DNA of 64,000 nt, from positions 190,647 to 254,646 of the forward strand of contig CAYYSI010000001.1 of the NCBI GenBank assembly GCA_964474435.1, written 5' to 3'. A program made the position numbers and the translations under genes. Within the stretch, counting starts at the first letter, position 1, and every line of letters begins with the position of its first letter. The notes under the pieces are model-generated. The model saw nothing but the letters and a program-made list of their open reading frames with translations, searched no databases and was not told the origin of the DNA. Of this stretch, positions 1 through 58,904 are shown piece after piece. The DNA is from an uncultured Candidatus Saccharibacteria bacterium (GTDB taxonomy: Bacteria; Patescibacteriota; Minisyncoccia; Phycocordibacterales; UBA9973).

Positions 1-235
1 ATTCAGAGGAGCGATACCAGCAAAATATACTCTTAAATATTAAAACTGCCCTTGAAATGATAGGGGAGACAGATTTGCCACAAACATTTGCTGAGTGTGC
101 AGAAGCAGTCAAGCGACTGGAGGGCAAAATCATTATGCGTGAAGTTGCAGAAGAATTTCATACACTCTATTTAAAAAATAAGAACAAATAAAAAAGCGGA
201 ACAATTGTTCCGCTTTAACCGTACTAAAGAACTAT

Positions 236-1552
236 TTATACCTTACACTCCATTTCATAACTTAGATCATAACCAGCTGCCTTTTTATATCTTGCGATGG
301 CACCAGAGTCCCCAGTTGCTTTCAAAACATTATCAGAAAGCTTCACACAGGGAAGATCGTTTACAGTATACGGCTTACATACAATTGAGAGCTGTTTGAG
401 CCCCATATCATTAGTAAGGTTTGTTCCGAGACCATGACTGATAATGCCTTGTCCTAAGAATTTTGAACTTATTTCGATCATTGGGTCAACATCCATCCCG
501 TCGCTTGGAATAAATAACCGATCTCTGAAATCAACATTAGCCTTTACATACCGTTCCTGTTGAAGCAAAATTGCTTTTATAGGATCCATAGAATCAATAC
601 GGAAACCTTTTAGGTCTCGAACTGTTTCATCAGAATATGCTTTTAGACAAAACTCAGTACCAAATGTATCAGGCAATGAGATATTCAATCCATACCCATA
701 TTGAGCAAGCCATTCTTTTTGAATAAATTCCTGGATTGCCGCAAGGTTCATATCGCTGTTTTGCAACAATAGCGCAGATGCAGCCATGCTGATTTCGTGC
801 GCACAGGTGCCGATTGGCATCAGAGCGTATTTCATCGCAAGGCTAGTTGAAGAAGTACCCTTAAATTGATTTGGAAGTTCTTCAGCAACCCTGGCAACTA
901 CATATTCGTGCCATGCCGGACTGAAACTTCTTCTGTTTCCAAAGTCAGAAAACTGAACATAGGGATGCGCTTTGAGTTTAGTAACTCGTGCAAGAAGACG
1001 TTTTATACCTTCAGCATATACTGCTTCGCGTTCCAACCTGCTCATCTTTGATAAGATCGAACGGTAATAAAGCACATTAATAATCTTGAGCATAGAAATT
1101 TCTCCATGAGTTGAATTATTCCAACCTCCTTCTTTACCCCACCTAATGTCCAGTTGATGATCATCGGTTTTAGAGAAATGTACAGCCGGTAATTTAAAAT
1201 TACGAAGATGTTGCAAATAGGGGTCACTAAACATTCGGCGCTCTCCATACTCAAACGTTCCTGCTAAGTAGTGATGTTCACTACCATCAAGTTGTATTTG
1301 CTGCAATAAATCGATTTGGTCACCAAATGCTTTTTCTGTGATATGGTCACCAAGTGGTACGCTGAGCGTACGGTTCTTGAAATGCCATTCTACATTGGCA
1401 GATTTATACAAGTTATGGTCAAAAATAAATTGTCCCATTGAAAACTTATAAAAATCATCATCTAGTAAAGAAGAAACAATTGGTCCCTCCATAGTTTCTT
1501 CATCGATGCGACGAAGATCCATATTACTACCATTTCTTTTATTGTTTTTCAT
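236..1552 (-). CDS. pncB: Nicotinate phosphoribosyltransferase (NAPRTase family)
   Basis: N-terminal LLDDDFYKFSMGQ signature and overall NAPRTase-like sequence. AGGAGG Shine-Dalgarno 8 nt upstream of the ATG at 1552. Overlaps and is co-oriented with the upstream nicotinamidase gene. The full ORF extends to 1585. Confidence 0.8.
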   Translation of the reverse strand: MKNNKRNGSNMDLRRIDEETMEGPIVSSLLDDDFYKFSMGQFIFDHNLYKSANVEWHFKNRTLSVPLGDHITEKAFGDQIDLLQQIQLDGSEHHYLAGTFEYGERRMFSDPYLQHLRNFKLPAVHFSKTDDHQLDIRWGKEGGWNNSTHGEISMLKIINVLYYRSILSKMSRLEREAVYAEGIKRLLARVTKLKAHPYVQFSDFGNRRSFSPAWHEYVVARVAEELPNQFKGTSSTSLAMKYALMPIGTCAHEISMAASALLLQNSDMNLAAIQEFIQKEWLAQYGYGLNISLPDTFGTEFCLKAYSDETVRDLKGFRIDSMDPIKAILLQQERYVKANVDFRDRLFIPSDGMDVDPMIEISSKFLGQGIISHGLGTNLTNDMGLKQLSIVCKPYTVNDLPCVKLSDNVLKATGDSGAIARYKKAAGYDLSYEMECKV

Positions 1553-2129
1553 TGCATACCTCCTGTGTTTTTGTGACATGGGCATGGGCAGCTCTCATCA
1601 AGAGCTCTGCTTCAAAGCCATCTGTCGGGTGAATGTTTACAGCTCGCACAGCATCATTCAAAAGAACGGTGTCGTAGCCAAATTTCTGTGAATCAAGGAC
1701 ACACGCCTTTACGCAGTAGTCTTTTGCAAGACCAGCTACATAGAGGGTGGTGATACCATGTTCTTTGAGAACAGCATCGAGCGGTCTTCCTTTAATATCA
1801 ACCCCTTCGAAAGGGGAGTAACCGTCGTCTACAGTACTCATACCTTTCGATATGAGTACATAGTGCTCCGGCATCTTGATATCAGGATGGAACTTAGCTC
1901 CATTAGTATTTTTAACACAATGTGTTTCCCATGTACCACCATCCTTTTTAAAGTGTTTGGTTTTCCTAGGATGCCAATCACGAGTGAAAATGATCAGCCA
2001 GTCTAGCTTGACCGCATGTGCGATCAGCAGGTTAATGTAGGGAATGATCTCATCTCCAAATGGAACACCAAGTGCTCCGCCAGGAAAGAAATCGTTCTGT
2101 CCATCGACGATTATCAAAGCTTTTTTCAT
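1539..2129 (-). CDS. pncA: Nicotinamidase/pyrazinamidase (isochorismatase family)
   Basis: IVDGQNDF motif at the N-terminus and a conserved Cys in the YVAGLAKDYCV segment. 196 aa. NrtR-like operator in its promoter. Confidence 0.8.
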   Translation of the reverse strand: MKKALIIVDGQNDFFPGGALGVPFGDEIIPYINLLIAHAVKLDWLIIFTRDWHPRKTKHFKKDGGTWETHCVKNTNGAKFHPDIKMPEHYVLISKGMSTVDDGYSPFEGVDIKGRPLDAVLKEHGITTLYVAGLAKDYCVKACVLDSQKFGYDTVLLNDAVRAVNIHPTDGFEAELLMRAAHAHVTKTQEVCNEKQ

Positions 2130-2162
2130 GCGTTATGATTTTATGTAAGTTGTGAATGTAAA

Positions 2163-2183
2163 TTAGTGTATTTATTACACTAT
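2163..2183. promoter_or_regulatory. Putative NrtR operator (TTAGTGT-N7-ACACTAT palindrome) upstream of pncA-pncB
   Basis: Palindrome with a GT-N7-AC core, 34-54 nt upstream of the pncA start. Near-identical copies occur at 6600-6620 and 9364-9384. Confidence 0.6.
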
Positions 2184-2288
2184 ATACCTATTTTTACTAT
2201 ATAGGTACTTTGTCTTCACTATAACATATTATTTAGTATAAGTCAATAAATAAAAGGAGTACTTGTGTACTCCTTTTCATAAGAATAA

Positions 2289-4037
2289 TTATGGCTTCAT
2301 GGTCATAGACCATACCTTGTTTTGATAGGTCACTATGACTTTATTTTGCCAATTTGAAAGAACAAAAGCGCTTTTTACTTGAGGATCAAGAACCTCGCGA
2401 ACTTGGCCATTCGTTGGTACAGCAATCATTAGTTTGCCATCATCTATAATGCTTGCACGGACACCTTTCGGTAGAAGTGCGACATTTAATTCAGGTGTAT
2501 CAACTTCTCTTATATCTACTTGATAATCAGTATAGGAACTATTGAAAGTGTATTGATATGCACTATACCTTCCTGACTTTGGATCAAGTGCGGTAACAAT
2601 GATATGTCTGAAACCGGCTACTGCATCAACTACTTTTTGGTCCTTTAGTGAAGGAGCGCTGATATAGGTACATGCATTTGTACCAAATGGTACTACCAGA
2701 TGAACGGCACCGAGCGACTGCTGGATACCAAGTCCTCGATACCACGTCGTTGCATTTCCGAGTACTTGCCAGGTATTCACCGTAACGAGTATTGGTTTCC
2801 CAAAATCTTTTACTGTTATTTCCGTTAATCCTGCATCAGTAACTACAAAGAGTCTGTCCTGAAATCTGAGCAATGATTTTCCTTTAAGATGCGACTGCAG
2901 CTCTGTGATTCCTCCATGCCCCACAAGAAGTGTGAATCGAATATTTTCTCCAGGCACTAATTCAGCAAGTAGATACCCCGATTCAACAGGAATTACTTCA
3001 GCTGTATACTCAATGCATGTTTTCCATATCATCCCAGTTGCGACATGTCGAAGTGTTCCTGATGCAAGCCTCATGACACCGCTCGGGTATATAGTAATGG
3101 CTTCATCAGTGATTCCGTCATAGAGTAGTGAGAACACAATACTACCAGCACCAGAGGTAAATAGTACAGGTGCGTGCTTAATAGCCTGCATTTTCTTTTG
3201 CTGAAGCGGAGATGGCGGCATAGAGCGTTCTCCGTTCTGAAACACCGCCTCATACCATTCCAAAAGATTTGGAGGAATGCATGAGAAATCTCTCACCGCA
3301 CTGTTGAGACGTACACCTGTGGTAAAAACAGATTTATTGTCCTTCATTCGTTTTTCCATATCATTCCCGGTATATCCGCTAAGCATACCTTTATATGGAT
3401 GAATGCCGGTAAATACTTGAAATGAGACGATACCGAATGAAAACCAATCCGTCTCTCGGGTAAACCCATGTGTGTGCCAATCCCGAATGGAAGGCATAAT
3501 AACTGACGCCTTCCATTTCCCGATAGCCCATGAGTCAACATCAATGATACGAGGCTCAGGAATCTTGTTTGATCGATTGACGAGCCAGTTGAATTCATTT
3601 GCATCAACAACAATCGCGTTATGCTGATGGGCTGCCTCAATTGTAGTTCGCATACCATCGACAAGTGCAATTGCGTCTTTGTCTTTAAAGTTCTCTCTCT
3701 GACGATACGTACTCGTAAATACTCTTGCCAACGGTTCTGCGTCAACAAAATCCATATAATACCCAATAGGTTTTTTCCCTTGAAGTACTACTCCTTTAGG
3801 CGAAACAATAAACGGATGCTTGATACGAGAGAGGAGTTGTATCTTATCTTGCATATCGAGCGTACTCATTTTATAAGGATCGCTATAGAGTTTCACAATG
3901 GTCTTGCTTGAAGGTTTATAGATAGAGCCTTCACCACCAGTTGCGATATGATGCGATGGGTGAAGTGCGATATCTCCTCGACCAACAAGTGTAACGATTG
4001 TTTCTTTTTTGAGTATTCCTTGTTGTGTTGTTATCAT
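2289..4037 (-). CDS. Ser/Thr protein kinase with a ~300-aa C-terminal extension (kinase component of a TerY-P-like triad)
   Basis: Gly-rich loop GGEGSIY, catalytic loop HNAIVVDANEFNWLV, a DVDSW (DFG-like) segment, and an activation segment ending FSFGIVSFQVFTGIHPY. The start overlaps the PP2C stop (ATGA). Confidence 0.75.
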   Translation of the reverse strand: MITTQQGILKKETIVTLVGRGDIALHPSHHIATGGEGSIYKPSSKTIVKLYSDPYKMSTLDMQDKIQLLSRIKHPFIVSPKGVVLQGKKPIGYYMDFVDAEPLARVFTSTYRQRENFKDKDAIALVDGMRTTIEAAHQHNAIVVDANEFNWLVNRSNKIPEPRIIDVDSWAIGKWKASVIMPSIRDWHTHGFTRETDWFSFGIVSFQVFTGIHPYKGMLSGYTGNDMEKRMKDNKSVFTTGVRLNSAVRDFSCIPPNLLEWYEAVFQNGERSMPPSPLQQKKMQAIKHAPVLFTSGAGSIVFSLLYDGITDEAITIYPSGVMRLASGTLRHVATGMIWKTCIEYTAEVIPVESGYLLAELVPGENIRFTLLVGHGGITELQSHLKGKSLLRFQDRLFVVTDAGLTEITVKDFGKPILVTVNTWQVLGNATTWYRGLGIQQSLGAVHLVVPFGTNACTYISAPSLKDQKVVDAVAGFRHIIVTALDPKSGRYSAYQYTFNSSYTDYQVDIREVDTPELNVALLPKGVRASIIDDGKLMIAVPTNGQVREVLDPQVKSAFVLSNWQNKVIVTYQNKVWSMTMKP

Positions 4038-4903
4038 GATACTTCATGTTGTGCATCTATATGTATTGCTGCTACAGAAAAATCATCAGAAGGAAATATT
4101 TCTTCCTTTGAAAATACGTGTAGCATTCTACTGAGACGCCTTTTTACAAATTCTCCCTGCCACTGTTTGATCGAGGTAAGTTCTTGTATGATCGTACCTG
4201 GTTCAATAAGTGCAGCGTGAGCTTTAAAATTTTCAACCCCATCAGAGCAAAGAATAATACTTTTCAATCCCAGTAATTCTTCTTGAGAGAATGTAATACT
4301 GTATCCCTGTACCATTTCTTTGGCTGGATATGTAGATTCTTCAATCTGTAGATCTTGTCCAGCATGAGTCGTGGTTTTGATGACCACAAAGCTTTCAGGA
4401 TCATCACTTGCGTGTCGAGATAGGAATCCATCCAATACCTTTCCGCTATAGGAAATATACAAGGGCATATTTTGCTTCCATATGAAGCGATACGTTACTA
4501 TCTTTCCATCTGTATAGATCAATGTGACGCACCCATCTCCAAATACATGAACGAAACCACGATCTGGTGTCGTAACTGCATACAGCAGTGTTGCTTGTAA
4601 ATCATGAAGCATGAGTCCCATACTGCTCATAATGGCAGTACTGGTAGATCTAATTTTTTTCGATATGATCTCTGGTGAATTATCACTCTCTGGGTTTGAT
4701 AAACACTCCTTAAGCACCATAATTGCTGCATAATTGAGTATTCTCGCACCAGTATCTGTTTCTCCTCCAGTAGAGCATCCATCTGAAAGTGATATGTATG
4801 CAGATGTCCCAGACATGCCCGATAAGGCATGATCCTGACATGGCATATTTTGACGAATGTGCAGTCCGCCAATGACGAAATGCGAATCTCCATTGAATTT
4901 CAT
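4034..4903 (-). CDS. PP2C-family protein Ser/Thr phosphatase (TerY-P triad phosphatase)
   Basis: PP2C motifs (MPCQDHA, FGDGCVTL, LCSDGV). The start is trimmed to the ATG at 4903 because the full ORF (to 5104) would run through the hairpin and the upstream vWA gene. Confidence 0.7.
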   Translation of the reverse strand: MKFNGDSHFVIGGLHIRQNMPCQDHALSGMSGTSAYISLSDGCSTGGETDTGARILNYAAIMVLKECLSNPESDNSPEIISKKIRSTSTAIMSSMGLMLHDLQATLLYAVTTPDRGFVHVFGDGCVTLIYTDGKIVTYRFIWKQNMPLYISYSGKVLDGFLSRHASDDPESFVVIKTTTHAGQDLQIEESTYPAKEMVQGYSITFSQEELLGLKSIILCSDGVENFKAHAALIEPGTIIQELTSIKQWQGEFVKRRLSRMLHVFSKEEIFPSDDFSVAAIHIDAQHEVS

Positions 4904-4930
4904 TGTAATGAATTTAGTGGTGAAATAATA

Positions 4931-4956
4931 AAAGGTGGAGTAATTGCTCCACCTTT
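4931..4956 (-). terminator. Hairpin (10-bp stem AAAGGTGGAG/CTCCACCTTT) between the vWA and PP2C genes; possible terminator or attenuator
   Basis: Perfect inverted repeat followed on the minus strand by a U-rich stretch, immediately after the vWA stop. Confidence 0.5.
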
Positions 4957-4964
4957 GATACTGA

Positions 4965-5711
4965 TCAGATTGTTGTGCTGATGTTTTGTGACGCACCGCC
5001 AGTACCAACCGCTTGCGATTGGGAACTAACTGATTGACTGACGAAATCTGCAAGCTTTGCAAGTTTTCGTTCAGATACATCTCCTGCATCAATAAATTGA
5101 TCAAGGCCCGCCTCTATTTGAAAGCTTTGTAATTCAGTAAGGTACTGAGCGGCATTAATACCGATTAGTATACTTACCATAGATTCAAGGAATTCTCCCT
5201 TGATACCTTTTTCAATCTCTTTCTTGATGGCTGATGATTTCATTACTGAAGCATTATCATCTCCATCGGTAATGATAAAGACGATAGCGTTGTTACGAAA
5301 ATCATCATCATAAAGCGTCTTTGAATAGGCATTTGTTGCTCCTATCGCAGAATATGTTGCGTCTACCAGAGGTGTACCTCCACCAGGATTGAAGTTCTCG
5401 TAATCATCAGGATTGATTTCAGCTAATGGCTTGAAGCCATGCAATTCTTTAATACCTCCTTGTAGGGAGCTAGAAAAGAGAATGACGCGGATCAGAAGAT
5501 TGTCTGAGCGAGGTGATTTTTTGCAAGAATTTACTGCAGTAATCAGACACTGGCGCAGTTGATCTTCGAATCCATCAACAGATCCAGTGATATCAACGGC
5601 AATTGTAACGAGTGTATACTCTGAAGCACCAAGATGCTCAGTGCGTATAGCGGAGAAGGTGAAGTTTCCACCAGGAATCTTACCATCTTCCATTTGATCT
5701 AAACGTGGCAT
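4965..5711 (-). CDS. von Willebrand factor A domain protein, TerY-like
   Basis: MIDAS motif DITGS, plus GGGTP and ITDGDDN segments. ~248 aa. First gene of the vWA-PP2C-kinase order typical of TerY-P triads. Confidence 0.75.
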   Translation of the reverse strand: MPRLDQMEDGKIPGGNFTFSAIRTEHLGASEYTLVTIAVDITGSVDGFEDQLRQCLITAVNSCKKSPRSDNLLIRVILFSSSLQGGIKELHGFKPLAEINPDDYENFNPGGGTPLVDATYSAIGATNAYSKTLYDDDFRNNAIVFIITDGDDNASVMKSSAIKKEIEKGIKGEFLESMVSILIGINAAQYLTELQSFQIEAGLDQFIDAGDVSERKLAKLADFVSQSVSSQSQAVGTGGASQNISTTI

Positions 5712-5724
5712 AAGTGTAAGTTTT

Positions 5725-6570
5725 TTAGTTGAAGAATGTTGTTGATGTTGTTAGCTGAACTCCTTTTTTCTGGATATCTTTTATCCAGGCTGCAGTAAGA
5801 GCAGGGAAGTCAATGACATTTGGAATAGCAGCGATAGAGCTTGAGCAATCAGTCATGATGTGAATCTTGCTCAAATGTTGTGTGCCGATGTTATCAATAA
5901 TTTGATTTACTGTTTCCATCACGCAGTGGCTCAATGCCTCTCCAGCAACCAATACCACATCGGCTTTTTCCAATGTTTCAAGGAGCTTAGTATTTAGTAG
6001 AGTGGTTGGATCAGTTGGATCTTCTACTTCTGCCATAAGGCCACCATAGTGCTCTGTGTAAGGATTAGTACCCTTGGTCACAACATCGAGCATTGCATAT
6101 TCGTTCCGCTGCCAATCAAGAAGGGCCTTCATAAGGTCTGCCTGTATTGCATGTCCAGGTGTTCCAATAATACAATGTTCAGTCCAAACTGTGTGACGTT
6201 TCTTTTTATTCTGTTCCAACGTGCGCAAGTACTGAAGAGAACGTGTACGAACCCCTGGGTCTCTCGTAGTCCAGATACCCGCTTCAACATCGTCAGCAAT
6301 GATTTGTGTGAAGGGTGGGGGAGGATTACCTTTTGCATCCTTCCACCACATCGGGTGCGAAATATCGATGACCTGATGTGAGTCCATGGTCACATGGATG
6401 TCTTCCAATTTTTCACCATTACCGGCAATAAATGCTGCGAGTCGCTGCATATCGGCCGTGGCGCCAGGGACGGGAAGTGCCGGAATAAACCCTACAATAC
6501 CGTCTACGCGATCCATGAAATCATTCTGAGGATCGATGATAACTAAGTGGATTTTTTGTGTTGTTTTCAT
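5725..6570 (-). CDS. Isochorismatase-family cysteine hydrolase (second nicotinamidase-like enzyme, 281 aa)
   Basis: IIDPQNDF motif and a conserved Cys in VLVAGEALSHCV. Directly downstream of an NrtR-like operator, with only a 13-nt gap before the vWA gene. Confidence 0.7.
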   Translation of the reverse strand: MKTTQKIHLVIIDPQNDFMDRVDGIVGFIPALPVPGATADMQRLAAFIAGNGEKLEDIHVTMDSHQVIDISHPMWWKDAKGNPPPPFTQIIADDVEAGIWTTRDPGVRTRSLQYLRTLEQNKKKRHTVWTEHCIIGTPGHAIQADLMKALLDWQRNEYAMLDVVTKGTNPYTEHYGGLMAEVEDPTDPTTLLNTKLLETLEKADVVLVAGEALSHCVMETVNQIIDNIGTQHLSKIHIMTDCSSSIAAIPNVIDFPALTAAWIKDIQKKGVQLTTSTTFFN

Positions 6571-6599
6571 CTTTTTGTTTTTTATTGTTAAGGAATTAA

Positions 6600-6620
6600 T
6601 TAGTGTTCTTTTTACACTAT
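6600..6620. promoter_or_regulatory. Putative NrtR operator (TTAGTGT-N7-ACACTAT) upstream of the isochorismatase-vWA operon
   Basis: Same palindrome as at 2163 and 9364. A second half-site-like TTAGTGT follows at 6625-6631. Confidence 0.6.
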
Positions 6621-6697
6621 ATACTTAGTGTAAAAAATACGCAAAGTAGTTATGCGTTAGAATACACAATTAGTATGTTGTCAAATAATCCTTATTT

Positions 6698-7411
6698 TTA
6701 GAGAAACTGCCTTGTATCAACAAGAGCTGTTTTCTTGAACTCGTAGAGAATAGCGGGACGCTGCTTTTTGCCTGTAAGTTTTTTCTTGGTTGCCTTTATG
6801 ATATCGAGCTGATCAATCAATTTTCGAAAGTTCCGTTTATCCATAGATTGCTGGAGAATAATCTCATAGGTTTGTTGAAGCATACTAAAGGTAAAATATT
6901 TCGGCATTGCCGCAAATGCAACATTGGTATATTTTAATTTTGACTGCACACGCTTGTACGCATACTTGATAATATCCTTGTGATCAAATGCAACCTTTGC
7001 AGGTAATTCATGTACATCAAAGAGTGTTGGCTGTTGTCCGTGAATAAGGTCAATATGCTTGTACACCTCTTCAGAGATAAGTGCAAAATAGGTAACAGAG
7101 AACACAACATCACGTGGATCTCGGCCTGGTGTATCAAATGTATACAATTGCTCAATATACAGCGGATCACTTAATCCGACTTTTTCTTTGAGTACTCGAA
7201 CAGCGGTGTCTTTAGTTGATTCTTCCTTTCGAGGAAATGCTCCCGGAAGCGCCCATAGACCCCTAAACGGTTCTCCATCACGGTTAATGAGAAGTACCTT
7301 AAGCTTGTCCTCATGAACCATAAAAAGGACTACGTCTACTGAAACGTATGGGTTGAGGAAGTTTGTATTTGAACGGTCGATATTATTTGTTTTCATAGGT
7401 ATCAAGAGCAT
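6698..7411 (-). CDS. nrtR: NrtR, Nudix-related transcriptional regulator of NAD metabolism
   Basis: N-terminal Nudix-like fold and a C-terminal winged-helix signature FTFSMLQQTYEIIL...DKRNFRK. Overlaps the end of nadE, so both are likely in one operon. Confidence 0.75.
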   Translation of the reverse strand: MLLIPMKTNNIDRSNTNFLNPYVSVDVVLFMVHEDKLKVLLINRDGEPFRGLWALPGAFPRKEESTKDTAVRVLKEKVGLSDPLYIEQLYTFDTPGRDPRDVVFSVTYFALISEEVYKHIDLIHGQQPTLFDVHELPAKVAFDHKDIIKYAYKRVQSKLKYTNVAFAAMPKYFTFSMLQQTYEIILQQSMDKRNFRKLIDQLDIIKATKKKLTGKKQRPAILYEFKKTALVDTRQFL

Positions 7412-9353
7412 TCATCCATAATGTCATTTCTGCGTCTGATGGCATTCTCCAGTCTGCACGAGGGGAGAGCGATACAGATCCAACCTTTGGCCCATCCGGC
7501 ATAATAGAACGCTTCCATTGCATCATAAAGAATCGCTTCATGAATACCTTGAGCCATTTCATTATCTCAGAGCCATCGTATTTACCTTCAAAGGCAAGTA
7601 CTGCTAGTTCATAGATTTTGACCGGATGACTTGCCCAGCGAATAAAATGATAGAGAAAGAAATCATGCAGTTCATATGGTCCTACCAATTCTTCTGTTTT
7701 TTGAGCAATCTGCCCGTCTTTTGTTGCAGTGAGCTCAGGTGAGATTGGTGTATCTAAAATAGACTGAATAACATCTTGAACAGTGGTGTCATAGTGTTTC
7801 TTTGCCATCCACGCAACAACATGCTGCACAAGCGTTTTTGGAACACCTGCATTTACATTATAGGGAGCAGTATGATCTCCGGTAAACGTATTCCATCCAA
7901 GCGCAATCTCAGAGAGATCTCCGGTACCCATAACAAATCCTTTTAATTCATTTGCCTTATCCATAAGAATCATCGTTCGGTAGCGCGCTTGTGCATTCTC
8001 ATACGTGTTATTTTCTGTAACACCATCATGCCCAATATCAGCAAGGTGCTGCGTCACTGCGGGCACAATACTGATCTCCTCAACTGGTAATTTGAATGCC
8101 CCAGCAAGTGTATATGTATTTGATTTTGTGTGATCTGTTGTACCAAACCCAGGCATCGTAATGATATGCATATTGGTAGCAGGAAGAGAAAGCTTTTCCA
8201 ATGCTTTGATACCGACCAATAGCGCAAGTGTTGAATCAAGTCCTCCCGACAGACCAAGTACGAGATGCTGAATTCCTGACTGCTTCATTCGTTTTGTCAG
8301 TCCTGCAACTTGAATATTAAATACCTCCTCAGCAACTTCCTGCTTTAGTGCATCACTTTCTGGAATAAAATTACTCTGTGGAACCTTTCGTTCAAGACCA
8401 GAAACACTCGTAGCTGAAGACCCTGGTAGAGAAATGGTGCGCCATGACTGAGTATTGATTTCTCGAGTTGCATCTCCAAAACTCGTTGTTCGGATACGAT
8501 CAATCATACAGTGGGCAATATCAATATCTGCATACATGATGTATGGATCTTGCTGATATCGTACTGATTCAGCAATCATGCTTCCATTTTCTGCGACTAT
8601 GCAATGCCCTGAAAAAACAGTGTCAGTCGTTGATTCACCTATACCAGAAGAAACGTATACATACGCACTGATAGTTCGAGCACTTTGCTGAAGTACAAGA
8701 TTGCGACGGTAGTGTGCTTTTCCAACAAGTTCGTTTGAGGCAGACAGGTTTACAAGTACAGTCGCACCAGCAACAGCGAGCTTTGAGCTTGGCGGAAGCG
8801 GTGTCCACACGTCTTCACAAATTTCTACACCAAGTACTACTTGTGTATTATCAGAGGATGCAAAAAGGAGGTCAGTTCCAACAGGAATATCATACCCGAA
8901 AAACTTAATTGAGTTGCTGATTAAATCTCGTCCTGACGCAAACCAGCGCTTCTCATAAAATTCTTTGTATTCAGGAAGATTTGTTTTTGGAATAATCCCA
9001 ACAACTTTTCCTTCGGCACATACTGCCGCAACATTAAAAAGCTTTGATTCAATCCGAAGGGGAAGTCCCACAATGCATACACCACCATCGATAGTCGCCT
9101 TAGCAATCAGAGAAAGACCCTTGGAAGCAGCTTCTAATAAAATATCCTGCTGCAATAGATCTCCAAGGGTATACCCGGTAATGCAAAGCTCTGGGAAAGC
9201 AACAATAGACGCACCGTTTTTTCGAGCGTCCCTAAAAAGTGTAATAATCGCATCAGTATTAGCGACACAGTCACCGAGGAGTACTGATGGCACCGCTGTT
9301 GCAATACGAATCATTCCTAGAGAACCGAGATCAATGGTCTTGTGTTTTGTCAT
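7383..9353 (-). CDS. nadE: Glutamine-dependent NAD+ synthetase (CN-hydrolase + NAD synthetase domains)
   Basis: N-terminal nitrilase-like domain, and the PP-loop GLSGGLDS in the synthetase domain. 656 aa. Confidence 0.9.
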   Translation of the reverse strand: MTKHKTIDLGSLGMIRIATAVPSVLLGDCVANTDAIITLFRDARKNGASIVAFPELCITGYTLGDLLQQDILLEAASKGLSLIAKATIDGGVCIVGLPLRIESKLFNVAAVCAEGKVVGIIPKTNLPEYKEFYEKRWFASGRDLISNSIKFFGYDIPVGTDLLFASSDNTQVVLGVEICEDVWTPLPPSSKLAVAGATVLVNLSASNELVGKAHYRRNLVLQQSARTISAYVYVSSGIGESTTDTVFSGHCIVAENGSMIAESVRYQQDPYIMYADIDIAHCMIDRIRTTSFGDATREINTQSWRTISLPGSSATSVSGLERKVPQSNFIPESDALKQEVAEEVFNIQVAGLTKRMKQSGIQHLVLGLSGGLDSTLALLVGIKALEKLSLPATNMHIITMPGFGTTDHTKSNTYTLAGAFKLPVEEISIVPAVTQHLADIGHDGVTENNTYENAQARYRTMILMDKANELKGFVMGTGDLSEIALGWNTFTGDHTAPYNVNAGVPKTLVQHVVAWMAKKHYDTTVQDVIQSILDTPISPELTATKDGQIAQKTEELVGPYELHDFFLYHFIRWASHPVKIYELAVLAFEGKYDGSEIMKWLKVFMKRFFMMQWKRSIMPDGPKVGSVSLSPRADWRMPSDAEMTLWMNALDTYENK

Positions 9354-9363
9354 AGTATTGTTT

Positions 9364-9384
9364 ATAGTGTTAGTCGTACACTAT
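9364..9384. promoter_or_regulatory. Putative NrtR operator (ATAGTGT-N7-ACACTAT) in the divergent nadE / Nudix intergenic region
   Basis: Third copy of the palindrome, 11-31 nt upstream of the nadE start. Implies autoregulation of the nadE-nrtR operon and control of the divergent Nudix gene. Confidence 0.6.
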
Positions 9385-9419
9385 GTAAATTACTACAATC
9401 CCAATTTATTGTCAATACC

Positions 9420-10157
9420 ATGTTTAAATCTCACACTCCAAATCTCCATATTAATCTTGAAAAGCCGGCCGGTTATCCGGATCGATTCGTCACTCCCGAA
9501 CCCAACCGCTCATGGGAAGTACGCTATCCAGAATATATTCCACCATACTATATTGACCCAAAAGTCCTTATACAAGGCATAGAGAAAGGATGGGCTGATC
9601 CAGAAGATATCTCAGCAATTGAAAAAAGGGGCTGGAGCAGAAATTATGAAGTAAACATAGATGAAGAAGGGTTTCCGCTTAACCCAAAAGGAAGAACAGG
9701 TATTAAGGGTCGAGGCCTTTTGGGAAAATGGGGAGCAAATTATGCAGTAGATATTCTTGTCTCAAGAACTACAGATAAGGGGAGGGAATACCTACTTATT
9801 AAGCGAACAGACAATCATCAATATGCATTTGTTGGAGGAATGGTTGATGGTGATGAATCAGATATCAGAGCAGCAGAGCGAGAGCTCGGAGAAGAAGTAC
9901 ATTTAGATATTCCACTTGAAAAAGCTGAGGTTATTGAGAAGGGATATGCAAATGATTTTAGGAATACTGACAATGCATGGATAGAAACAACAGTCTTTCA
10001 TATGGACGTAACTAATACTAACTATGTAACCCCTCGAGCAGATGATGATGCAGAATCTCTCGAATGGGTACCCGAAGAAAGCATACCTACCCTCAAAATG
10101 CATAGTAATCATCATCAAGTACTTGAGTCATTTATAAAAAATCATGCAAGAAATTAA
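9420..10157 (+). CDS. Nudix hydrolase, NUDT9-like ADP-ribose pyrophosphatase
   Basis: Nudix box ...GGMVDGDESDIRAAERELGEEV, and a NUDT9-type N-terminal segment GRTGIKGRGLLGKWGAN. The start is trimmed to the ATG at 9420 to avoid overlapping the nadE start. Confidence 0.75.
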   Translation: MFKSHTPNLHINLEKPAGYPDRFVTPEPNRSWEVRYPEYIPPYYIDPKVLIQGIEKGWADPEDISAIEKRGWSRNYEVNIDEEGFPLNPKGRTGIKGRGLLGKWGANYAVDILVSRTTDKGREYLLIKRTDNHQYAFVGGMVDGDESDIRAAERELGEEVHLDIPLEKAEVIEKGYANDFRNTDNAWIETTVFHMDVTNTNYVTPRADDDAESLEWVPEESIPTLKMHSNHHQVLESFIKNHARN

Positions 10158-10614
10158 AGCCCCAAACAACATTCCAGAGTCACCTAATATGAAAATATTT
10201 CTCGCAGGAAGTATTGAGATGGGTACAGCAGATAATTGGCAAAACATTGTAAGTGAAAAACTTAAAGATGAGGCAGTACTACTTCTAAATCCTCGAAGAG
10301 ATATATGGGATACCACATGGGAACAATCGAAACAGAATCCTGCATTCCGTGAACAAGTTGAGTGGGAACTTGATGCGCTGACAAGAAGTGATTACATCAT
10401 TTTATACTTCGATAAAAATACAAAGTCCCCGATCTCGCTCCTTGAGATGGGACTATTCGCACAAAGCGGAAAACTGCTCATTATCTGTCCAGAGGGGTTT
10501 TGGCGGAAAGGGAATGTTGATATTGTCTCTGAAAAATACGGGGCTCTGCAGTTTCGGACACTTGATGATGCACTCGAATATCTTACTCCTTTCATTCGGA
10601 CCTTCCAGATATAG
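10144..10614 (+). CDS. Nucleoside 2-deoxyribosyltransferase-like (NDT/Rcl fold) protein
   Basis: KIFLAGSI...NPRRD...DALTRSDYII...E.G.A..GK pattern typical of the NDT/Rcl family. The true start may instead be the ATG at 10189 (MKIFLAG). Overlaps the Nudix stop. Confidence 0.55.
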   Translation: MQEIKAPNNIPESPNMKIFLAGSIEMGTADNWQNIVSEKLKDEAVLLLNPRRDIWDTTWEQSKQNPAFREQVEWELDALTRSDYIILYFDKNTKSPISLLEMGLFAQSGKLLIICPEGFWRKGNVDIVSEKYGALQFRTLDDALEYLTPFIRTFQI

Positions 10615-10680
10615 AGATATATTTGACTTTTAGATAAAATTATGGTACTATTACCATAATGCCTTTGCTCTTTTACAGAG

Positions 10681-10731
10681 TATAGATTGGTTTCCACAGC
10701 ATCTTTACGGGATTGTGGTAACCAATCTATA
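10681..10731. repeat. 18-bp inverted repeat (TATAGATTGGTTTCCACA / TGTGGTAACCAATCTATA, 1 mismatch) with a 15-nt loop, ending 7 nt before the mqo start
   Basis: Seen directly in the sequence. Not followed by a T-run, so it is more likely an operator or RNA structure than a terminator. Confidence 0.6.
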
Positions 10732-10737
10732 CACACA

Positions 10738-12129
10738 ATGCAAAACAACACATATGACGTACTCATTATCGGAGTCGGCGCCAGTGGAAGCGCACTTGCT
10801 TATACACTATGCCGATATACCAATATCAAGCGCATAGTTGTTGTAGAAAAATACGATAAACCAGGACAGGTTAATACCAAAGCATCAAATAATAGTCAAA
10901 CACTGCACGTTGGAGATATCGAAACAAACTACACTATCGACAAGGTACGCACGGTCAAACCGGCGTCCATGATGACAGTAGCGTATGCAAACATGCTTCC
11001 ATCTGCAGAACGAAACAAGATTCTTAAGGTATTACCTAAGATGGTTCTTGGGATCGGCACTGAAGTACCCTTACTCGAACAACGCTTTAATGAATTGCGA
11101 CCACTGTTTCCTGAATTACAAAAATTGTATGGGCCTGATATTGCCAAGATTGAACCAAACATAATGAATGGTCGCAATCCTGATGAAAAAATCATCGCGC
11201 TCTACAATCCAATTGGGTACGCAGTTGATTTTGAGTACCTATCTCAATCATTTATAACTGAAGCACAAAAGTGCAATTCGGAGATTGATATACGGTACCA
11301 AAGCGAAGTACAGCAAATTGAGAAATGTGATGATGGTCTCTATATGGTGCATATTAAAGGAGATATATCTCTTCGTGCAAAAGTTGTAATAGTTGATGCA
11401 GATTCATATAGCCTCCTTTTTGCAAAACAATTAGGATACGGCATGGAGTATTCACTCATTCCTATTGGAGGAACATTCTATTTCACAGAGCAGTTACTTC
11501 AAAGCAAAGTCTATACAGTGCAAAAACCAGGATTACCTTTTGCAGCAGCACACGGCGATCCTGATTTACATCATCCAAATCTGACACGATGGGGACCAAC
11601 TGCACGGTTTTATCCTGCGCTTGAGAGTCACAAGTTCGGCACGAGCGGAGATTATTTCCGTTCTTCTGGACTAAATCGAATGCGTACCTGGAAAAGTTTT
11701 TTCTCTATCTTACTTAAAAAGGTTATGCGAAAGTATCTCTTTGCAAATATGCTCTACGAATTGCCTGTATTGGGGAAGTGGATGTTTGTTTCAAAAAACA
11801 TTCGTAAGATTATTCCTACCATACGCAACAAAGACGTACGCATTGCAAAAGGATACGGTGGCATGCGATTGCAACGAGTAGATACTCGAACCCATGAATT
11901 ACAGCTTGGGGAAGGGAAGATTGTTGGAAATAATATTATCTTCAACATGACTCCGTCACCTGGTGCAAGTGTCGCACTCTACAATGCGTATCGTGATGCT
12001 GAACAAATTACCACTTTCCTCGGAGAACAGTTTCTGTTTTCTAAAGAGGATATGGAGCATGACCTGATTACAAGCCAGACTATCGATCATTCAATCTCAG
12101 TTTCGCTTCCTGTAGGGTATGCGTCATAA
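10738..12129 (+). CDS. mqo: FAD-dependent malate:quinone oxidoreductase-like protein
   Basis: Dinucleotide-binding YDVLIIGVGASGSALAY motif near the N-terminus. ~464 aa, resembling the Mqo family. Start trimmed to M18 (ATG at 10738). Confidence 0.65.
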   Translation: MQNNTYDVLIIGVGASGSALAYTLCRYTNIKRIVVVEKYDKPGQVNTKASNNSQTLHVGDIETNYTIDKVRTVKPASMMTVAYANMLPSAERNKILKVLPKMVLGIGTEVPLLEQRFNELRPLFPELQKLYGPDIAKIEPNIMNGRNPDEKIIALYNPIGYAVDFEYLSQSFITEAQKCNSEIDIRYQSEVQQIEKCDDGLYMVHIKGDISLRAKVVIVDADSYSLLFAKQLGYGMEYSLIPIGGTFYFTEQLLQSKVYTVQKPGLPFAAAHGDPDLHHPNLTRWGPTARFYPALESHKFGTSGDYFRSSGLNRMRTWKSFFSILLKKVMRKYLFANMLYELPVLGKWMFVSKNIRKIIPTIRNKDVRIAKGYGGMRLQRVDTRTHELQLGEGKIVGNNIIFNMTPSPGASVALYNAYRDAEQITTFLGEQFLFSKEDMEHDLITSQTIDHSISVSLPVGYAS

Positions 12130-12138
12130 AAAAACTAC

Positions 12139-12168
12139 AATACCAACCTTCTGGGTTGGTATTTTTTA
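12139..12168 (+). terminator. Rho-independent terminator for mqo
   Basis: AATACCAACC / GGTTGGTATT stem followed by TTTTT. Confidence 0.7.
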
Positions 12169-12171
12169 TAC

Positions 12172-12204
12172 ATAAATAAAAAAGCTCATCATAAAGATGA
12201 GCTT
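12172..12204 (-). terminator. Rho-independent terminator for the ADP-ribosylglycohydrolase gene
   Basis: AAGCTCATC / GATGAGCTT stem with a U-run on the minus strand. Confidence 0.7.
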
Positions 12205-12226
12205 CAGTATTAATTAGTTACTACTT

Positions 12227-13216
12227 TCAATGAGCATACTCTGCTGAAAACTTTTCATACAGTTTTGCTCCAAGTATTTCCATCCGCGCCAATCCCTCTG
12301 TTTTTTCCAATAAAAACTGTGGAAGAGAATCGAGTCCGTATTTTCCTGCCGCAATACCAGTTGATACAGCTGCGAGTGAGTCCACGTCACCACCCATATT
12401 GATACTGTTTTGAAGAGCTTCAAATGCTGATGAACTATGCTTTAACACATAGACGATATTGAGCGCCGTCTTCATTGCTGCACAAGGCAAACCATAGACA
12501 TTTGGGTCCCATTTAACATACGGAATCGGCTGTGTTCCATGAAGAACTAGGTAGTCCTCTTCGGTGAGTTTTTTAGGCGCAGGCAGTGCATCGATTTTTT
12601 CGAGGCTTTCTCTAGTATTAGAATCCTCAAGATAACACTTCAAAAAAGGGATGAGTTCATTAGCAGCACTATTATCTCTTAGGAAATGCCAGGCTACTAA
12701 TACTGTCAGCAGACTTGCTCTTCTTCCCATATCATTTGGATGAGTAGCATTTGCATTGATCTCAGCGTACCTATGAACGTCATGACGTCGTATGAATGCA
12801 AAAGGAAGCGCTCTCATTACAGGAGCATTACCTGGATCATCGCGTTCAGCTTGAGCTTTCCGGATCTCATCAATTTTTTTCTTGCCCGTATACCAATCCT
12901 CAATTGAACCATGTCCTTCACGTGGATAACCCTTTGCTTGCTTGTCAGTTTCGTACTCCTGCTTAAACTTTCTCAATAAAAGTTCAGCAGAAAATTTTTC
13001 TTCGGCAAGCAATGCTTCTACCACTGCTATAGTGTGCTCAGTGTCGTCTGAGTAAGTTCCCGGAAGTATCTTATTTTTTCCTCCCTTCCATTCATTTACA
13101 TATGTATCGAAATGAACGTTTTCTTTAATCCATGGACGACTTTTGAATTCAATACCAACACCAAATGCATCGCCAATGGCCACACCTTTTAAACTATTGA
13201 TAATACTTTGTTTCAT
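12227..13216 (-). CDS. ADP-ribosylglycohydrolase (ARH/DraG family)
   Basis: GVAIGDAFG, YSDDTEH and GGDVDSLAAVSTGIAAG motifs. Confidence 0.8.
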   Translation of the reverse strand: MKQSIINSLKGVAIGDAFGVGIEFKSRPWIKENVHFDTYVNEWKGGKNKILPGTYSDDTEHTIAVVEALLAEEKFSAELLLRKFKQEYETDKQAKGYPREGHGSIEDWYTGKKKIDEIRKAQAERDDPGNAPVMRALPFAFIRRHDVHRYAEINANATHPNDMGRRASLLTVLVAWHFLRDNSAANELIPFLKCYLEDSNTRESLEKIDALPAPKKLTEEDYLVLHGTQPIPYVKWDPNVYGLPCAAMKTALNIVYVLKHSSSAFEALQNSINMGGDVDSLAAVSTGIAAGKYGLDSLPQFLLEKTEGLARMEILGAKLYEKFSAEYAH

Positions 13217-13230
13217 TTTATTAAAGTTTT

Positions 13231-13259
13231 ATTTGTGTAAATACTACAACTTATTCTTG
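13231..13259 (-). promoter_or_regulatory. Putative sigma-70-like promoter (TTGACA-17-TAGTAT) for the ARH gene, overlapping a TTGAC-N3-GTCAA palindrome
   Basis: Hexamers read on the minus strand with 17-nt spacing. The leader would be very short. Confidence 0.4.
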
Positions 13260-13300
13260 ACTTTGTCAAAGAAAAAAGGTAGGGTTAAGAAAAAAATAAT

Positions 13301-13759
13301 ATGGAAGCAAAACTTACGGTACATTCAAGAAAATCAGAAAAAAGGTATGACTTTTCATTCAGAATTTATAAATCTGAAAAGGTAGACGATTTACAAATTG
13401 AACCAGGGTTTTATGAGCAACATTCTTCACTTCCTGAGGGTATACACTACGAAATAGAGATTATTTCTCCTGACATTAAAAGTTTTCCGTATGCTAAAAA
13501 GATTCATTATCACACTTCAGCAAAGAGTTCAAAAGACTTTATTTGCTGGACTGGGAGTATATCTTCGACACAACAAGTGGTAGGACTAGTTAGCATGTGG
13601 GCCGCAGGTTCTGTACATACCATAGAAACAGGGGAGGATTTTGCGAAGCTTTATAAAAGGCATAATATAAACCTCACAGACCATAGAACTCTTGTGTATT
13701 TACTGAAGAGTGAGCAGTATGGGATCGACATCCCAAAGAGCTCATATAGATTTTTATAA
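13301..13759 (+). CDS. Hypothetical protein (152 aa)
   Basis: ORF followed by a strong terminator. No family recognised. AT-rich. Confidence 0.45.
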   Translation: MEAKLTVHSRKSEKRYDFSFRIYKSEKVDDLQIEPGFYEQHSSLPEGIHYEIEIISPDIKSFPYAKKIHYHTSAKSSKDFICWTGSISSTQQVVGLVSMWAAGSVHTIETGEDFAKLYKRHNINLTDHRTLVYLLKSEQYGIDIPKSSYRFL

Positions 13760-13770
13760 GTAAATATAAA

Positions 13771-13806
13771 AAAGGCTATCGATATTACGATAGCCTTTGT
13801 TTTTTA
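13771..13806 (+). terminator. Rho-independent terminator
   Basis: AAGGCTATCG / CGATAGCCTT stem followed by TGTTTTTTATT. Confidence 0.7.
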
Positions 13807-13855
13807 TTCAACTTCTTTTTCAATAGCTTCAGAAAACTTTTGGGGTGCGTATTTT

Positions 13856-14302
13856 GTGAGTATACCTACTAGTGCTGACTTCACAAATCATTATCGTGAA
13901 CTAGATACGATGAATCGTTTTAGCGCATTTCATGGGTATTTTTCAATTTATGAATCAACAATAAGAGTGTTGGTAAATATTATAGATCCACTAGCTTGTA
14001 ATAACGGTAAGGCAAATTTTAATAGTGTTCTAAACTGGCTTGTTGCCAGAACCAGATTTAATCAAAGATATAATGACTTTCTTGAGTTATTACGTTTAAC
14101 GAGAAACACTGTTCATCATAATGGAGTTTATAGGCCAGAAAGGGGAGGTGACAAAGTCATTCCTTATAAAGGAGGAGTATATGAATTCAATATAGGACAA
14201 CCTATCATTTTTGCTGGCTGGGAATTTATGATAATGCTACAAAATGATCTCATTGAATTCTTTTTAGAACTAGTGGAAGAACCTGTAATCACTAATATTT
14301 AG
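13856..14302 (+). CDS. Hypothetical small protein with a possible HEPN-like Rx4H motif (RNTVHH)
   Basis: ORF only. The motif LRLTRNTVHHNG resembles a HEPN Rx4-6H signature. The start may be the ATG at 13910 (MNRFSAF). Confidence 0.4.
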   Translation: MSIPTSADFTNHYRELDTMNRFSAFHGYFSIYESTIRVLVNIIDPLACNNGKANFNSVLNWLVARTRFNQRYNDFLELLRLTRNTVHHNGVYRPERGGDKVIPYKGGVYEFNIGQPIIFAGWEFMIMLQNDLIEFFLELVEEPVITNI

Positions 14303-41985: not shown

Positions 41986-42249
41986 ATGTATTATATATAC
42001 GTTTTGAAAAGTAAGAAGGATCTGAAATATTATTATGGTCTTACTGTTGACTTAGGTAAAAGAGTAAGAGAACATAATAATGGTTCTGTAAAGTCGACCA
42101 AACCAAGAGCACCTTTTGAGTTGATATATTTTGAAACAACAGAAACGTTGCCAGATGCACGTAAGCGTGAAAAATATTTCAAAAGTGGTTTTGGAAGAAA
42201 ATACGTGCAGGGTAAAATTAAAGACATGGCCCCATCGTCTAACGGTTAG
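41986..42249 (+). CDS. GIY-YIG nuclease superfamily small protein
   Basis: MYYIYVLKS...YYYGLT...R...EHN motif. The 3' end overlaps tRNA-Glu by 22 nt. Confidence 0.65.
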   Translation: MYYIYVLKSKKDLKYYYGLTVDLGKRVREHNNGSVKSTKPRAPFELIYFETTETLPDARKREKYFKSGFGRKYVQGKIKDMAPSSNG

Positions 42250-42299
42250 GACGAATCCTTCTCAAGGATTAAATCGGAGTTCGATTCTCCGTGGGGTCA
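42228..42299 (+). tRNA. tRNA-Glu (anticodon CTC)
   Basis: Cloverleaf with acceptor stem GGCCCCA/TGGGGTC, D-arm TCGTCTAACGGTTAGGAC, anticodon loop TTCTCAA and T-loop TTCGATT. Confidence 0.8.
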
Positions 42300-42308
42300 C
42301 AGCAACAA

Positions 42309-58900: not shown

Positions 58901-58904
58901 AGCG

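Follow-up and report, generated by a model that had tools for sequence, protein, structure and literature searches.

The regulons of the Nudix-related repressor NrtR have been described in Shewanella (SO1979) and Synechocystis (Slr1690), as well as in groups of Chloroflexi and Pirellula with pncA, pncB and nadE as targets (Rodionov et al. 2008, PMC2330246). The operators of the family are palindromes of 21 bp built around GT-N7-AC, which overlap or follow the promoter, and ADP-ribose serves as the anti-repressor, being the effector in both nicotinamide adenine dinucleotide (NAD)-type NrtRs tested (PMC2330246). The characterised proteins are non-catalytic and carry altered Nudix signatures, as described for SyNrtR and SoNrtR (PMC2330246). 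Tandem sites are known for SoNrtR (PMC2330246) and for its relative BtAraR, whose complex with DNA has been solved (PMC4666351). Here, we analyzed a stretch of 64,000 nucleotides from an uncultured Candidatus Saccharibacteria bacterium (GenBank assembly GCA_964474435.1, contig CAYYSI010000001.1, positions 190,647 to 254,646), which is called the window in the following and to which all coordinates refer. The window probably represents a regulon for NAD salvage under an NrtR-family repressor, in a genome of the Patescibacteria, or Candidate Phyla Radiation (CPR), including release by ADP-ribose and a four-gene nicotinamidase cassette with a putative phospho-switch. While the regulator and its motif are ordinary for the NrtR kind, the conserved nicotinamidase-signalling cassette is the real lead.

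The candidate operators, the regulator gene and the NAD genes next to them are given below. All genes between 236 and 9353 are on the minus strand, and scores in bits are those of a position weight matrix (PWM).

2163-2183: NrtR operator 1, TTAGTGTATTTATTACACTAT, with the half-sites TTAGTGT and ACACTAT around ATTTATT; exact core match, 33 nt 5' of the pncA ATG, 28.8 bits
6600-6620: NrtR operator 2a, TTAGTGTTCTTTTTACACTAT; exact core match, 29 nt 5' of the ATG (6570) of the long nicotinamidase gene, 28.1 bits
6625-6645 (core 6626-6644): NrtR operator 2b, TAGTGTAAAAAATACGCAA; degenerate with two mismatches, in tandem with 2a at a distance of 4 bp, 19.0 bits
9364-9384: NrtR operator 3, ATAGTGTTAGTCGTACACTAT; exact core match within the 66 bp that separate the divergent nadE (ATG 9353, minus strand) and NUDT9-type Nudix (ATG 9420, plus strand) genes, 21.4 bits
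6698-7411, minus strand: nrtR, encoding a Nudix-related repressor in which a non-catalytic Nudix domain is followed by a winged helix at the C-terminus; start at 7396 in the public gene call (232 aa)
7383-9353, minus strand: nadE, encoding a glutamine-dependent NAD synthetase (NF002730, 7.4e-249, above cut-off) and placed first in the nadE-nrtR operon
1539-2129, minus strand: pncA, canonical short nicotinamidase of 196 aa (PF00857, 7.3e-28; NF008623, 1.4e-42, below cut-off)
236-1585, minus strand: pncB, nicotinate phosphoribosyltransferase (PF04095, 4.6e-30; PF17767; NF003704, 9.2e-92, below cut-off); the true start is probably internal
9420-10157, plus strand: NUDT9-type ADP-ribose pyrophosphatase, divergent from nadE (human NUDT9 in the PDB, 1q33, 4.9e-23; NUDT9-H domains of TRPM2); start corrected to the ATG at 9420

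Exact matches to TAGTGT-N7-ACACTA occur three times in the window, compared with none (mean 0.00, maximum 0) in 100 dinucleotide-preserving shuffles and with about 0.006 expected by our own estimate from base composition. The 8-base core GTGT-N7-ACAC is also confined to the same three positions. When a PWM built on sites from unrelated loci in other genomes was run over the window, the four operators scored 19-29 bits and the next best position 9.9 bits. Matches with two mismatches at 3121, 3126, 48235 and 55498 reached at most 9.9 bits by the PWM and were put down to chance. A first-pass annotation, made from the sequence alone, had proposed three 21-bp operators of the NrtR type at these coordinates, preceding pncA-pncB, an isochorismatase-vWA operon and the divergent nadE-nrtR and Nudix genes. 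The three sites and the gene assignments stand, the latter backed by Pfam and NCBIfam, and the GT-N7-AC core fits the 21-bp palindrome of the family as given in PMC2330246, a comparison made with the text description of the family site. Within the window, the motif was found only at these promoters and is not scattered at random. The count of three, however, had overlooked the degenerate tandem site at 6625-6645.

The distance to the start codon is 10 nt for nadE and 35 nt for the Nudix gene, which share operator 3, and operator 1 is located downstream of a promoter-like TTGACT-17-TATAGT element at 2246-2218 (minus strand). On the nadE side, a TTGACA element (9415-9410, minus strand) is followed by a 17-nt spacer and TAATTT, which, as read from the sequence, ends directly before operator 3. 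With operators placed on or just past promoter-like elements, a dimer sitting there would be expected to stop transcription at initiation or early in elongation, in line with what is described for NrtRs (PMC2330246).

The protein encoded at 6698-7411 matches the NUDIX family (PF00293, 2.8e-11, residues 27-149) and, with the full model covered, NrtR_WHD (PF21906, 1.8e-19, residues 165-225). It aligns over its full length to BtAraR (PDB 5bs6, 7e-39) and to SoNrtR of Shewanella (3gz5, 7.5e-31), and its Nudix domain to that of 3gz5 and 3gz8. The stretch FTFSMLQQ...DKRNFRK is located within the alignment, where the DKRNFRK motif aligns with BtAraR. As read from the sequence, the Nudix box is degenerate (G-x5-E-x8-RVLKEKVGL versus G-x5-E-x7-REUXEEXGU), with two of the three box glutamates replaced. 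The first-pass annotation had read this gene as a winged helix-turn-helix (wHTH) regulator that would be autoregulated. The wHTH domain is indeed present, as seen from the PF21906 match and the full-length homology to 5bs6 and 3gz5. Autoregulation is likewise supported because the nadE-nrtR operon, whose genes overlap by 14-29 nt, sits behind operator 3, and nadE-nrtR operons behind a site were found again in other loci of our collection (L003, L082, L043 and L076), while in L083 the complete divergent layout of Nudix gene and nadE-nrtR with one site in between recurs.

For a comparison across genomes, 80 loci were fetched solely for a homologue of the 6698-7411 protein (42-54% identity), spanning CPR bacteria, DPANN archaea, Acidobacteria, Chloroflexi, Planctomycetes, Myxococcota and others. 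The exact motif is present in 36/81 NrtR-homologue loci. Altogether, the 1.25 Mb of these loci contain 54 exact and 42 one-mismatch sites, whereas about 0.1 exact sites would be expected, which corresponds to a several-hundred-fold enrichment. Sixty of these 96 sites are positioned at most 350 bp 5' of a recognisable NAD-related gene: nrtR (20 sites), pncA (11), nadE (9), nadK (6), the long nicotinamidase gene (6), pncB (4), pnuC (3) and nadD-like genes (2). Homologues of the NUDT9-type gene were observed in pncA-pncB-NUDT9 operons behind NrtR sites (L037, L043, L076). The PWM gives the clade consensus wTAGTGT-(A/T-rich N7)-ACACTAw. As judged by sequence comparison, the palindromes are very probably NrtR-type binding sites, and the predicted link between motif and regulator is as strong as comparative genomics allows without experiment.

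In many respects, the locus resembles the NrtR regulons of PMC2330246: a repressor combining Nudix and wHTH domains, a 21-bp GT-N7-AC palindrome, pncA-pncB and nadE as targets, probable autoregulation, sites in tandem, operators that coincide with or follow the promoter and nrtR placed within the NAD cluster. Unlike the regulons described there, it belongs to a CPR host and adds a NUDT9-type ADP-ribose pyrophosphatase and the nicotinamidase-vWA-PP2C-kinase operon. In the mechanism we propose, a dimer of the 6698-7411 protein would bind wTAGTGT-N7-ACACTAw at four operators, namely one before pncA-pncB, the tandem pair before the cassette operon and one common to nadE-nrtR and the divergent Nudix(-deoxyribosyltransferase-like) unit. 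Binding would repress three promoter regions and include the transcription of nrtR itself. By analogy with the characterised NrtRs (PMC2330246), ADP-ribose from NAD cleavage would relieve DNA binding and release the repressor, and the presence of an ADP-ribose pyrophosphatase in the regulon lends contextual support to this effector. The induced genes would then recycle both fragments of the cleaved NAD. On one side, the Nudix enzyme would break down ADP-ribose and thereby reset the signal in a negative feedback; on the other side, the two nicotinamidases would convert nicotinamide to nicotinate, PncB would form nicotinate mononucleotide and NadE would complete NAD. The nrtR gene would be co-induced with its operon, and the 281-aa enzyme, as the characteristic nicotinamidase of the lineage, may work as a unit with the phospho-switch formed by the vWA, PP2C and kinase proteins.

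The cassette behind operators 2a and 2b comprises four genes and is closed by a terminator-like element:

5725-6570, minus strand: long-form nicotinamidase of 281 aa, first cassette gene (AlphaFold2 (AF2) model with a pLDDT (predicted local distance difference test) score of 92.5; Foldseek; invariant catalytic residues)
4965-5711, minus strand: vWA-domain protein of 248 aa (AF2 pLDDT 90.4; Foldseek top matches are vWA/integrin I domains), with an intact metal ion-dependent adhesion site (MIDAS) and a conserved Ser-rich C-terminal tail that reads SQSVSSQSQ
4034-4903, minus strand: PP2C-type protein phosphatase of 289 aa (PF13672 PP2C_2, 1.1e-14); extent corrected after the gene call in L088
2289-4037, minus strand: eukaryote-like Ser/Thr kinase of 582 aa (Pkinase, 1.2e-7, at the cut-off; MLK1 by PDB profile, 2.4e-5)
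2252-2277, minus strand: intrinsic-terminator-like hairpin with an 11-bp stem and a T run, closing the cassette operon

The first protein had been annotated as a second nicotinamidase-like hydrolase. Although it stays below the Pfam Isochorismatase threshold (21 versus 27 bits), its sequence matches in the PDB are nicotinamidases only. In a Foldseek search with the AF2 model, ranks 1-11 of the PDB matches are all nicotinamidases, including 2wta (6e-14), yeast Pnc1 and 3pl1. The target-normalised template modelling scores are 0.77-0.83, except for the longer Drosophila enzyme at rank 9 (0.49). Across 28 homologues, residues D13, K166, C216, D63, H65 and H132 do not vary and H72 is at least 90% conserved; in the alignment to M. 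tuberculosis PncA, D13, H132, K166 and C216 fall on its corresponding motifs. Following what is established for 3pl1, we take Asp13-Lys166-Cys216 to be the catalytic triad and Asp63/His65/His132 the metal site. Judged by predicted fold and conserved residues, the 281-aa protein is thus most probably a real nicotinamidase, which would convert nicotinamide to nicotinate. Because pncB is the commonest neighbour of the cassette and short pncA is found alongside in only 4/26 of the pncB neighbourhoods (absent in 22/26), the long enzyme is probably the working nicotinamidase of these genomes.

Like PncA and Pnc1 (A. baumannii 2wta, yeast 3v8e, M. tuberculosis 3pl1), the long enzyme has an isochorismatase-like fold, an Asp-Lys-Cys triad, an Asp/His metal site and a link to pncB. 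In contrast to them, it is about 70-90 residues longer and has insertions, shares 12-21% identity with solved nicotinamidases and is always co-encoded with vWA, PP2C and kinase genes. It is also sometimes fused to an N-terminal domain of about 240 aa, as seen in L095 (6254-7825) and L112 (6275-7810), where the fusion gene follows two to four NrtR sites in tandem; for this N-terminal domain, no Pfam or PDB match was obtained.

Among the three signalling proteins, the vWA assignment rests on structure prediction: the 248-aa protein has no Pfam match, Pfam and PDB profile searches of its family were uninformative, and the fold was recognised from the AF2 model and Foldseek. The vWA fold named by the first-pass annotation is therefore upheld, although not by Pfam. 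This family counts 967 representatives at the 50% level and conserves the MIDAS residues D40-x-S/T-G43-S44, T113 and D149. In the kinase family, the G-loop, K49 (the β3 lysine), D145-x4-N150 and D166-V-D168 are invariant. The C-terminal domain of about 300 aa is conserved, has no conserved Cys/His pairs and gave no Pfam or PDB sequence match.

To assess the conservation of the cassette, 80 metagenome loci were retrieved by the nicotinamidase alone (49-64% identity), and genes were counted only where enough DNA was available. The gene order proved strict, with vWA found 3' of the long nicotinamidase in 59/59, PP2C in 54/54 and the kinase in 45/45 loci. When no more than one mismatch was allowed, an NrtR site was found within 300 bp 5' of the long nicotinamidase gene in 38/75 metagenome loci, in 23 of them in tandem. 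The best-mismatch counts are bimodal, with values of either 0-1 or 4-5, the latter being the background level. When 1.5 kb upstream was allowed, a site was present in 36/52 loci compared with 5/40 inside the 4.5-kb cassette; the additional loci are operons that start with nrtR or with the enzyme fused to the N-terminal domain. Sites 5' of the orthologous gene were also seen in L003, a Nomurabacteria metagenome-assembled genome (MAG) with two exact tandem sites, in L082 and in L084-L086, of which L086 is a Parcubacteria MAG. Because of the strict synteny and the recurring upstream sites, the predicted place of the cassette in the NrtR regulon is conserved and not accidental. The membership of the vWA operon in the regulon, which had been noted as unusual, is supported, but it is no oddity of this genome: a strictly conserved cassette, often with tandem sites, is involved. 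More distant versions of the pair, consisting of a nicotinamidase-like (27-32% identity) and a vWA-like protein (25-29%), sometimes with a kinase upstream, are encoded near nrtR in Saccharibacteria/Patescibacteria (L004, L005, L008, L011, L025) and Myxococcota (L060, L081), with an upstream site in L060 and L025. As these distant versions are also found close to nrtR, the association appears to be old.

In gene composition, the signalling part of the cassette recalls the TerY-P triad (Anantharaman et al. 2012), which, according to PMC11090510, consists of vWA, PP2C and a kinase with a C-terminal zinc ribbon, while the kinase of a stand-alone defence variant (Gao et al. 2020) carries an OB fold. 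As in TerY-P, the genes for a MIDAS vWA protein, a PP2C_2 phosphatase and a Ser/Thr kinase are consecutive and in the same order. In contrast, the cassette kinase ends in its Cys-poor domain of about 300 aa where TerY-P kinases have a zinc ribbon or OB fold, the vWA protein has no Pfam vWA match, and the triad invariably follows the nicotinamidase gene amid NAD genes. With the PADLOC models, there was no match for the vWA, PP2C or nicotinamidase protein and only weak mad6/PD-T4-6 matches for the kinase. The earlier label TerY-P is therefore apt for the composition and order of the genes, but not for the kinase C-terminus or the PADLOC result, and the triad works like TerY-P rather than being TerY-P. 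It is a speculative idea that the trio acts as a phosphorylation switch on or together with the nicotinamidase.

Downstream of the Nudix gene, two further genes belong to the surroundings of the regulon:

10144-10614, plus strand: nucleoside 2-deoxyribosyltransferase-like (PF15891, 2e-34; phrog_30579, 4e-44), overlapping the Nudix gene
10687-12129, plus strand: Mqo-like FAD oxidoreductase (PF06039, 3.2e-23), which has a promoter-like site to itself; a terminator is located at 12139-12163

Because of the overlap, the deoxyribosyltransferase-like gene is probably co-transcribed with the Nudix gene; a homologue was observed directly after the kinase gene in L097 (6115-6573). The Mqo-like gene is a possible distal member. 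Mqo-like oxidoreductases recur in NrtR clusters, as in a DPANN archaeon (L075, 7563-9068), where a site is located about 80 bp upstream, and in a nadE-nrtR-Mqo operon (L155, 7934-10950), and the enzyme might be a NAD-independent stand-in for a NAD-dependent dehydrogenase. The NAD cluster is adjoined by a gene for an ADP-ribosylglycohydrolase (12227-13216, minus strand; PF03747, 2.6e-36), which is divergent from a 152-aa open reading frame without a family match (13301-13759, plus strand); the upstream region shared by these two contains no NrtR operator. Since GatB has its nearest named relatives (71-77% identical) in Pacebacteria, Nomurabacteria and Paceibacterota and the window also encodes penicillin-binding proteins, SLT, CtpB and a release factor, it is, by its gene content, part of a cellular CPR genome. 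The guanine-plus-cytosine (GC) content is 0.37-0.42 over positions 1-14000, which hold the NAD cluster, versus 0.42-0.50 over 14000-54000, and this lower GC content is compatible with horizontal acquisition. Further features of the window are a tRNA-Glu with the anticodon CTC (42228-42300, plus strand) and a type III restriction-modification pair (56357-60668, minus strand), consisting of a ResIII helicase of 847 aa and an N6/N4 DNA methylase of 587 aa, in a low-GC (0.33-0.36) stretch at the window end.

Several observations weigh against the reading of the window as an NrtR-controlled NAD-salvage regulon. NadD is not encoded in the 64-kb window, the promoters given above are guesses, with none returned at site 3 by a consensus scan, and the operator scan covered 64 kb of the genome, while the regulon may be larger. 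The NCBIfam model TransRepNtr (NF050029) matches the 6698-7411 protein at 3.3e-44, but with 151 bits against an equivalog cut-off of 400, and by E-value the closest solved relative is the arabinose-responsive BtAraR and not SoNrtR. By sequence, the regulator is a divergent member of the NrtR family and not an equivalog of the curated NCBIfam set. Because of this sub-cut-off score and the proximity to BtAraR, we infer the effector from context only, and the regulator could respond to another NAD-related metabolite or, as for BtAraR, to a sugar. We regard this as improbable: there are no pentose-utilisation genes near any site, the targets are all NAD genes, an ADP-ribose pyrophosphatase recurs in the regulon with an ADP-ribosylglycohydrolase alongside, and both tested NAD-type NrtRs respond to ADP-ribose (PMC2330246). 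With binding predicted from sequence and 64 kb of the genome covered, a different transcription factor encoded elsewhere might occupy the palindromes and leave the NrtR gene a bystander. The motif, however, goes together with the NrtR gene in CPR bacteria, DPANN archaea, Acidobacteria, Chloroflexi, Planctomycetes and Myxococcota, is found in loci picked by NrtR homology, stands directly 5' of nrtR in 20 cases and has the shape of the family palindrome (PMC2330246), which makes a bystander role very unlikely. Least credible is the idea that the palindromes are RNA hairpins, i.e. attenuators, terminators or processing sites, and not DNA operators. At each site, a stem of 6-8 bp closed by a loop of 5-7 nt is possible, and the tandem 2a/2b region folds at -14.1 kcal/mol (z = -4.1), but the hairpins of single sites fold weakly (-5.8 to -8.9 kcal/mol, z -1.4 to -2.9) and are without U tracts, and an Rfam search over positions 1-14000 gave no match at E <= 0.1. 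In addition, one site serves two divergent genes, and the stem sequence itself, not just the pairing, is kept across phyla together with a DNA-binding protein.

The remaining points of this kind concern the cassette. About one third of the metagenome cassettes have no recognisable NrtR site. In IMG/VR, the complete cassette with the same gene order was found in 61/80 loci, with GC contents of 0.23-0.64; none of these loci carries an NrtR-type site 5' of the nicotinamidase gene, and no more than 7 contain nrtR. One of them, L186 (1-14783), is a true phage region, in which a primase, an ATP-dependent ligase and the phage-specific phrog_1735 (1e-281) flank the cassette. The cassette is present as well in huge phages from GenBank with sizes of 460-595 kb (L249, LR756511.1 124618-139403; L250, LR756500.1), where NrtR sites 5' of the nicotinamidase gene are likewise absent. 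Because of the siteless third of the metagenome loci and of the phage copies, which have no site and mostly no nrtR, the cassette does not need NrtR. It could therefore be an autonomous mobile signalling or conflict module, TerY-P-like and acting in anti-phage defence or counter-defence, which was inserted into the NAD cluster, with the nicotinamidase-fold protein as effector or sensor and NrtR control as a secondary, lineage-specific addition. The vWA-PP2C-kinase order, shared with TerY-P and thus with a system tied to defence (PMC11090510), and the GC content of 0.40 in the cluster versus 0.45-0.49 in the adjoining DNA fit this possibility, to which we give appreciable but clearly minor weight. 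The catalytic and metal residues of the nicotinamidase are, on the other hand, all invariant, pncB is the commonest neighbour while canonical pncA is usually absent there, and the phage copies, too, often go with pncB, Nudix, prs, nadE or NADAR genes; moreover, PADLOC did not recognise the vWA and PP2C proteins as parts of a defence system and the kinase only weakly. The mobile-module and the salvage readings are not mutually exclusive.

Systems that reconstitute NAD+ are known from phages: NARP1 uses Adps and Namat, NARP2 proceeds by a ligation that leads from nicotinamide to nicotinamide mononucleotide, and NARP3 relies on PnuC and NadR (PMC13464706). [quoted passage not shown] An assignment of the cassette to NARP1, NARP2 or NARP3 was ruled out, as genes and chemistry differ (NARP3 consists of PnuC and a NadR-like protein). 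As a separate observation, a pair of pnuC and an AAA_28 gene (NadR-kinase-like), representing the same two functions as phage NARP3, is located behind NrtR sites in several CPR loci (L083, 11361-12991; L084, 12445-14164; L102, L104 and L133) and is absent from the window. Tentatively, the cassette may be a horizontally mobile NAD-recycling module of CPR bacteria and huge phages, in which a Preiss-Handler-type route is fed by ADP-ribose breakdown and controlled by a vWA-centred phospho-gate. In phages, it would then be a fourth kind of NAD+ reconstitution directed against NAD-depleting immunity; in CPR bacteria, it would be wired to NrtR.

To our knowledge, CPR bacteria rely on salvaged cofactors, and almost nothing is known of their transcriptional regulation. 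Among the papers that were searched, none links a nicotinamidase to vWA, PP2C or TerY proteins, or NrtR to CPR bacteria. The regulon described here carries textbook NrtR biology to an uncultured lineage, while the cassette unites a NAD-salvage enzyme with a vWA/PP2C/kinase switch in a family with hundreds of members that is 100% syntenic wherever this could be checked. If the cassette recycles NAD after NADase attack, it would bear on the NAD-centred arms race between phages and bacteria. If true, TerY-P-like triads would also gain a concrete and assayable partner enzyme.

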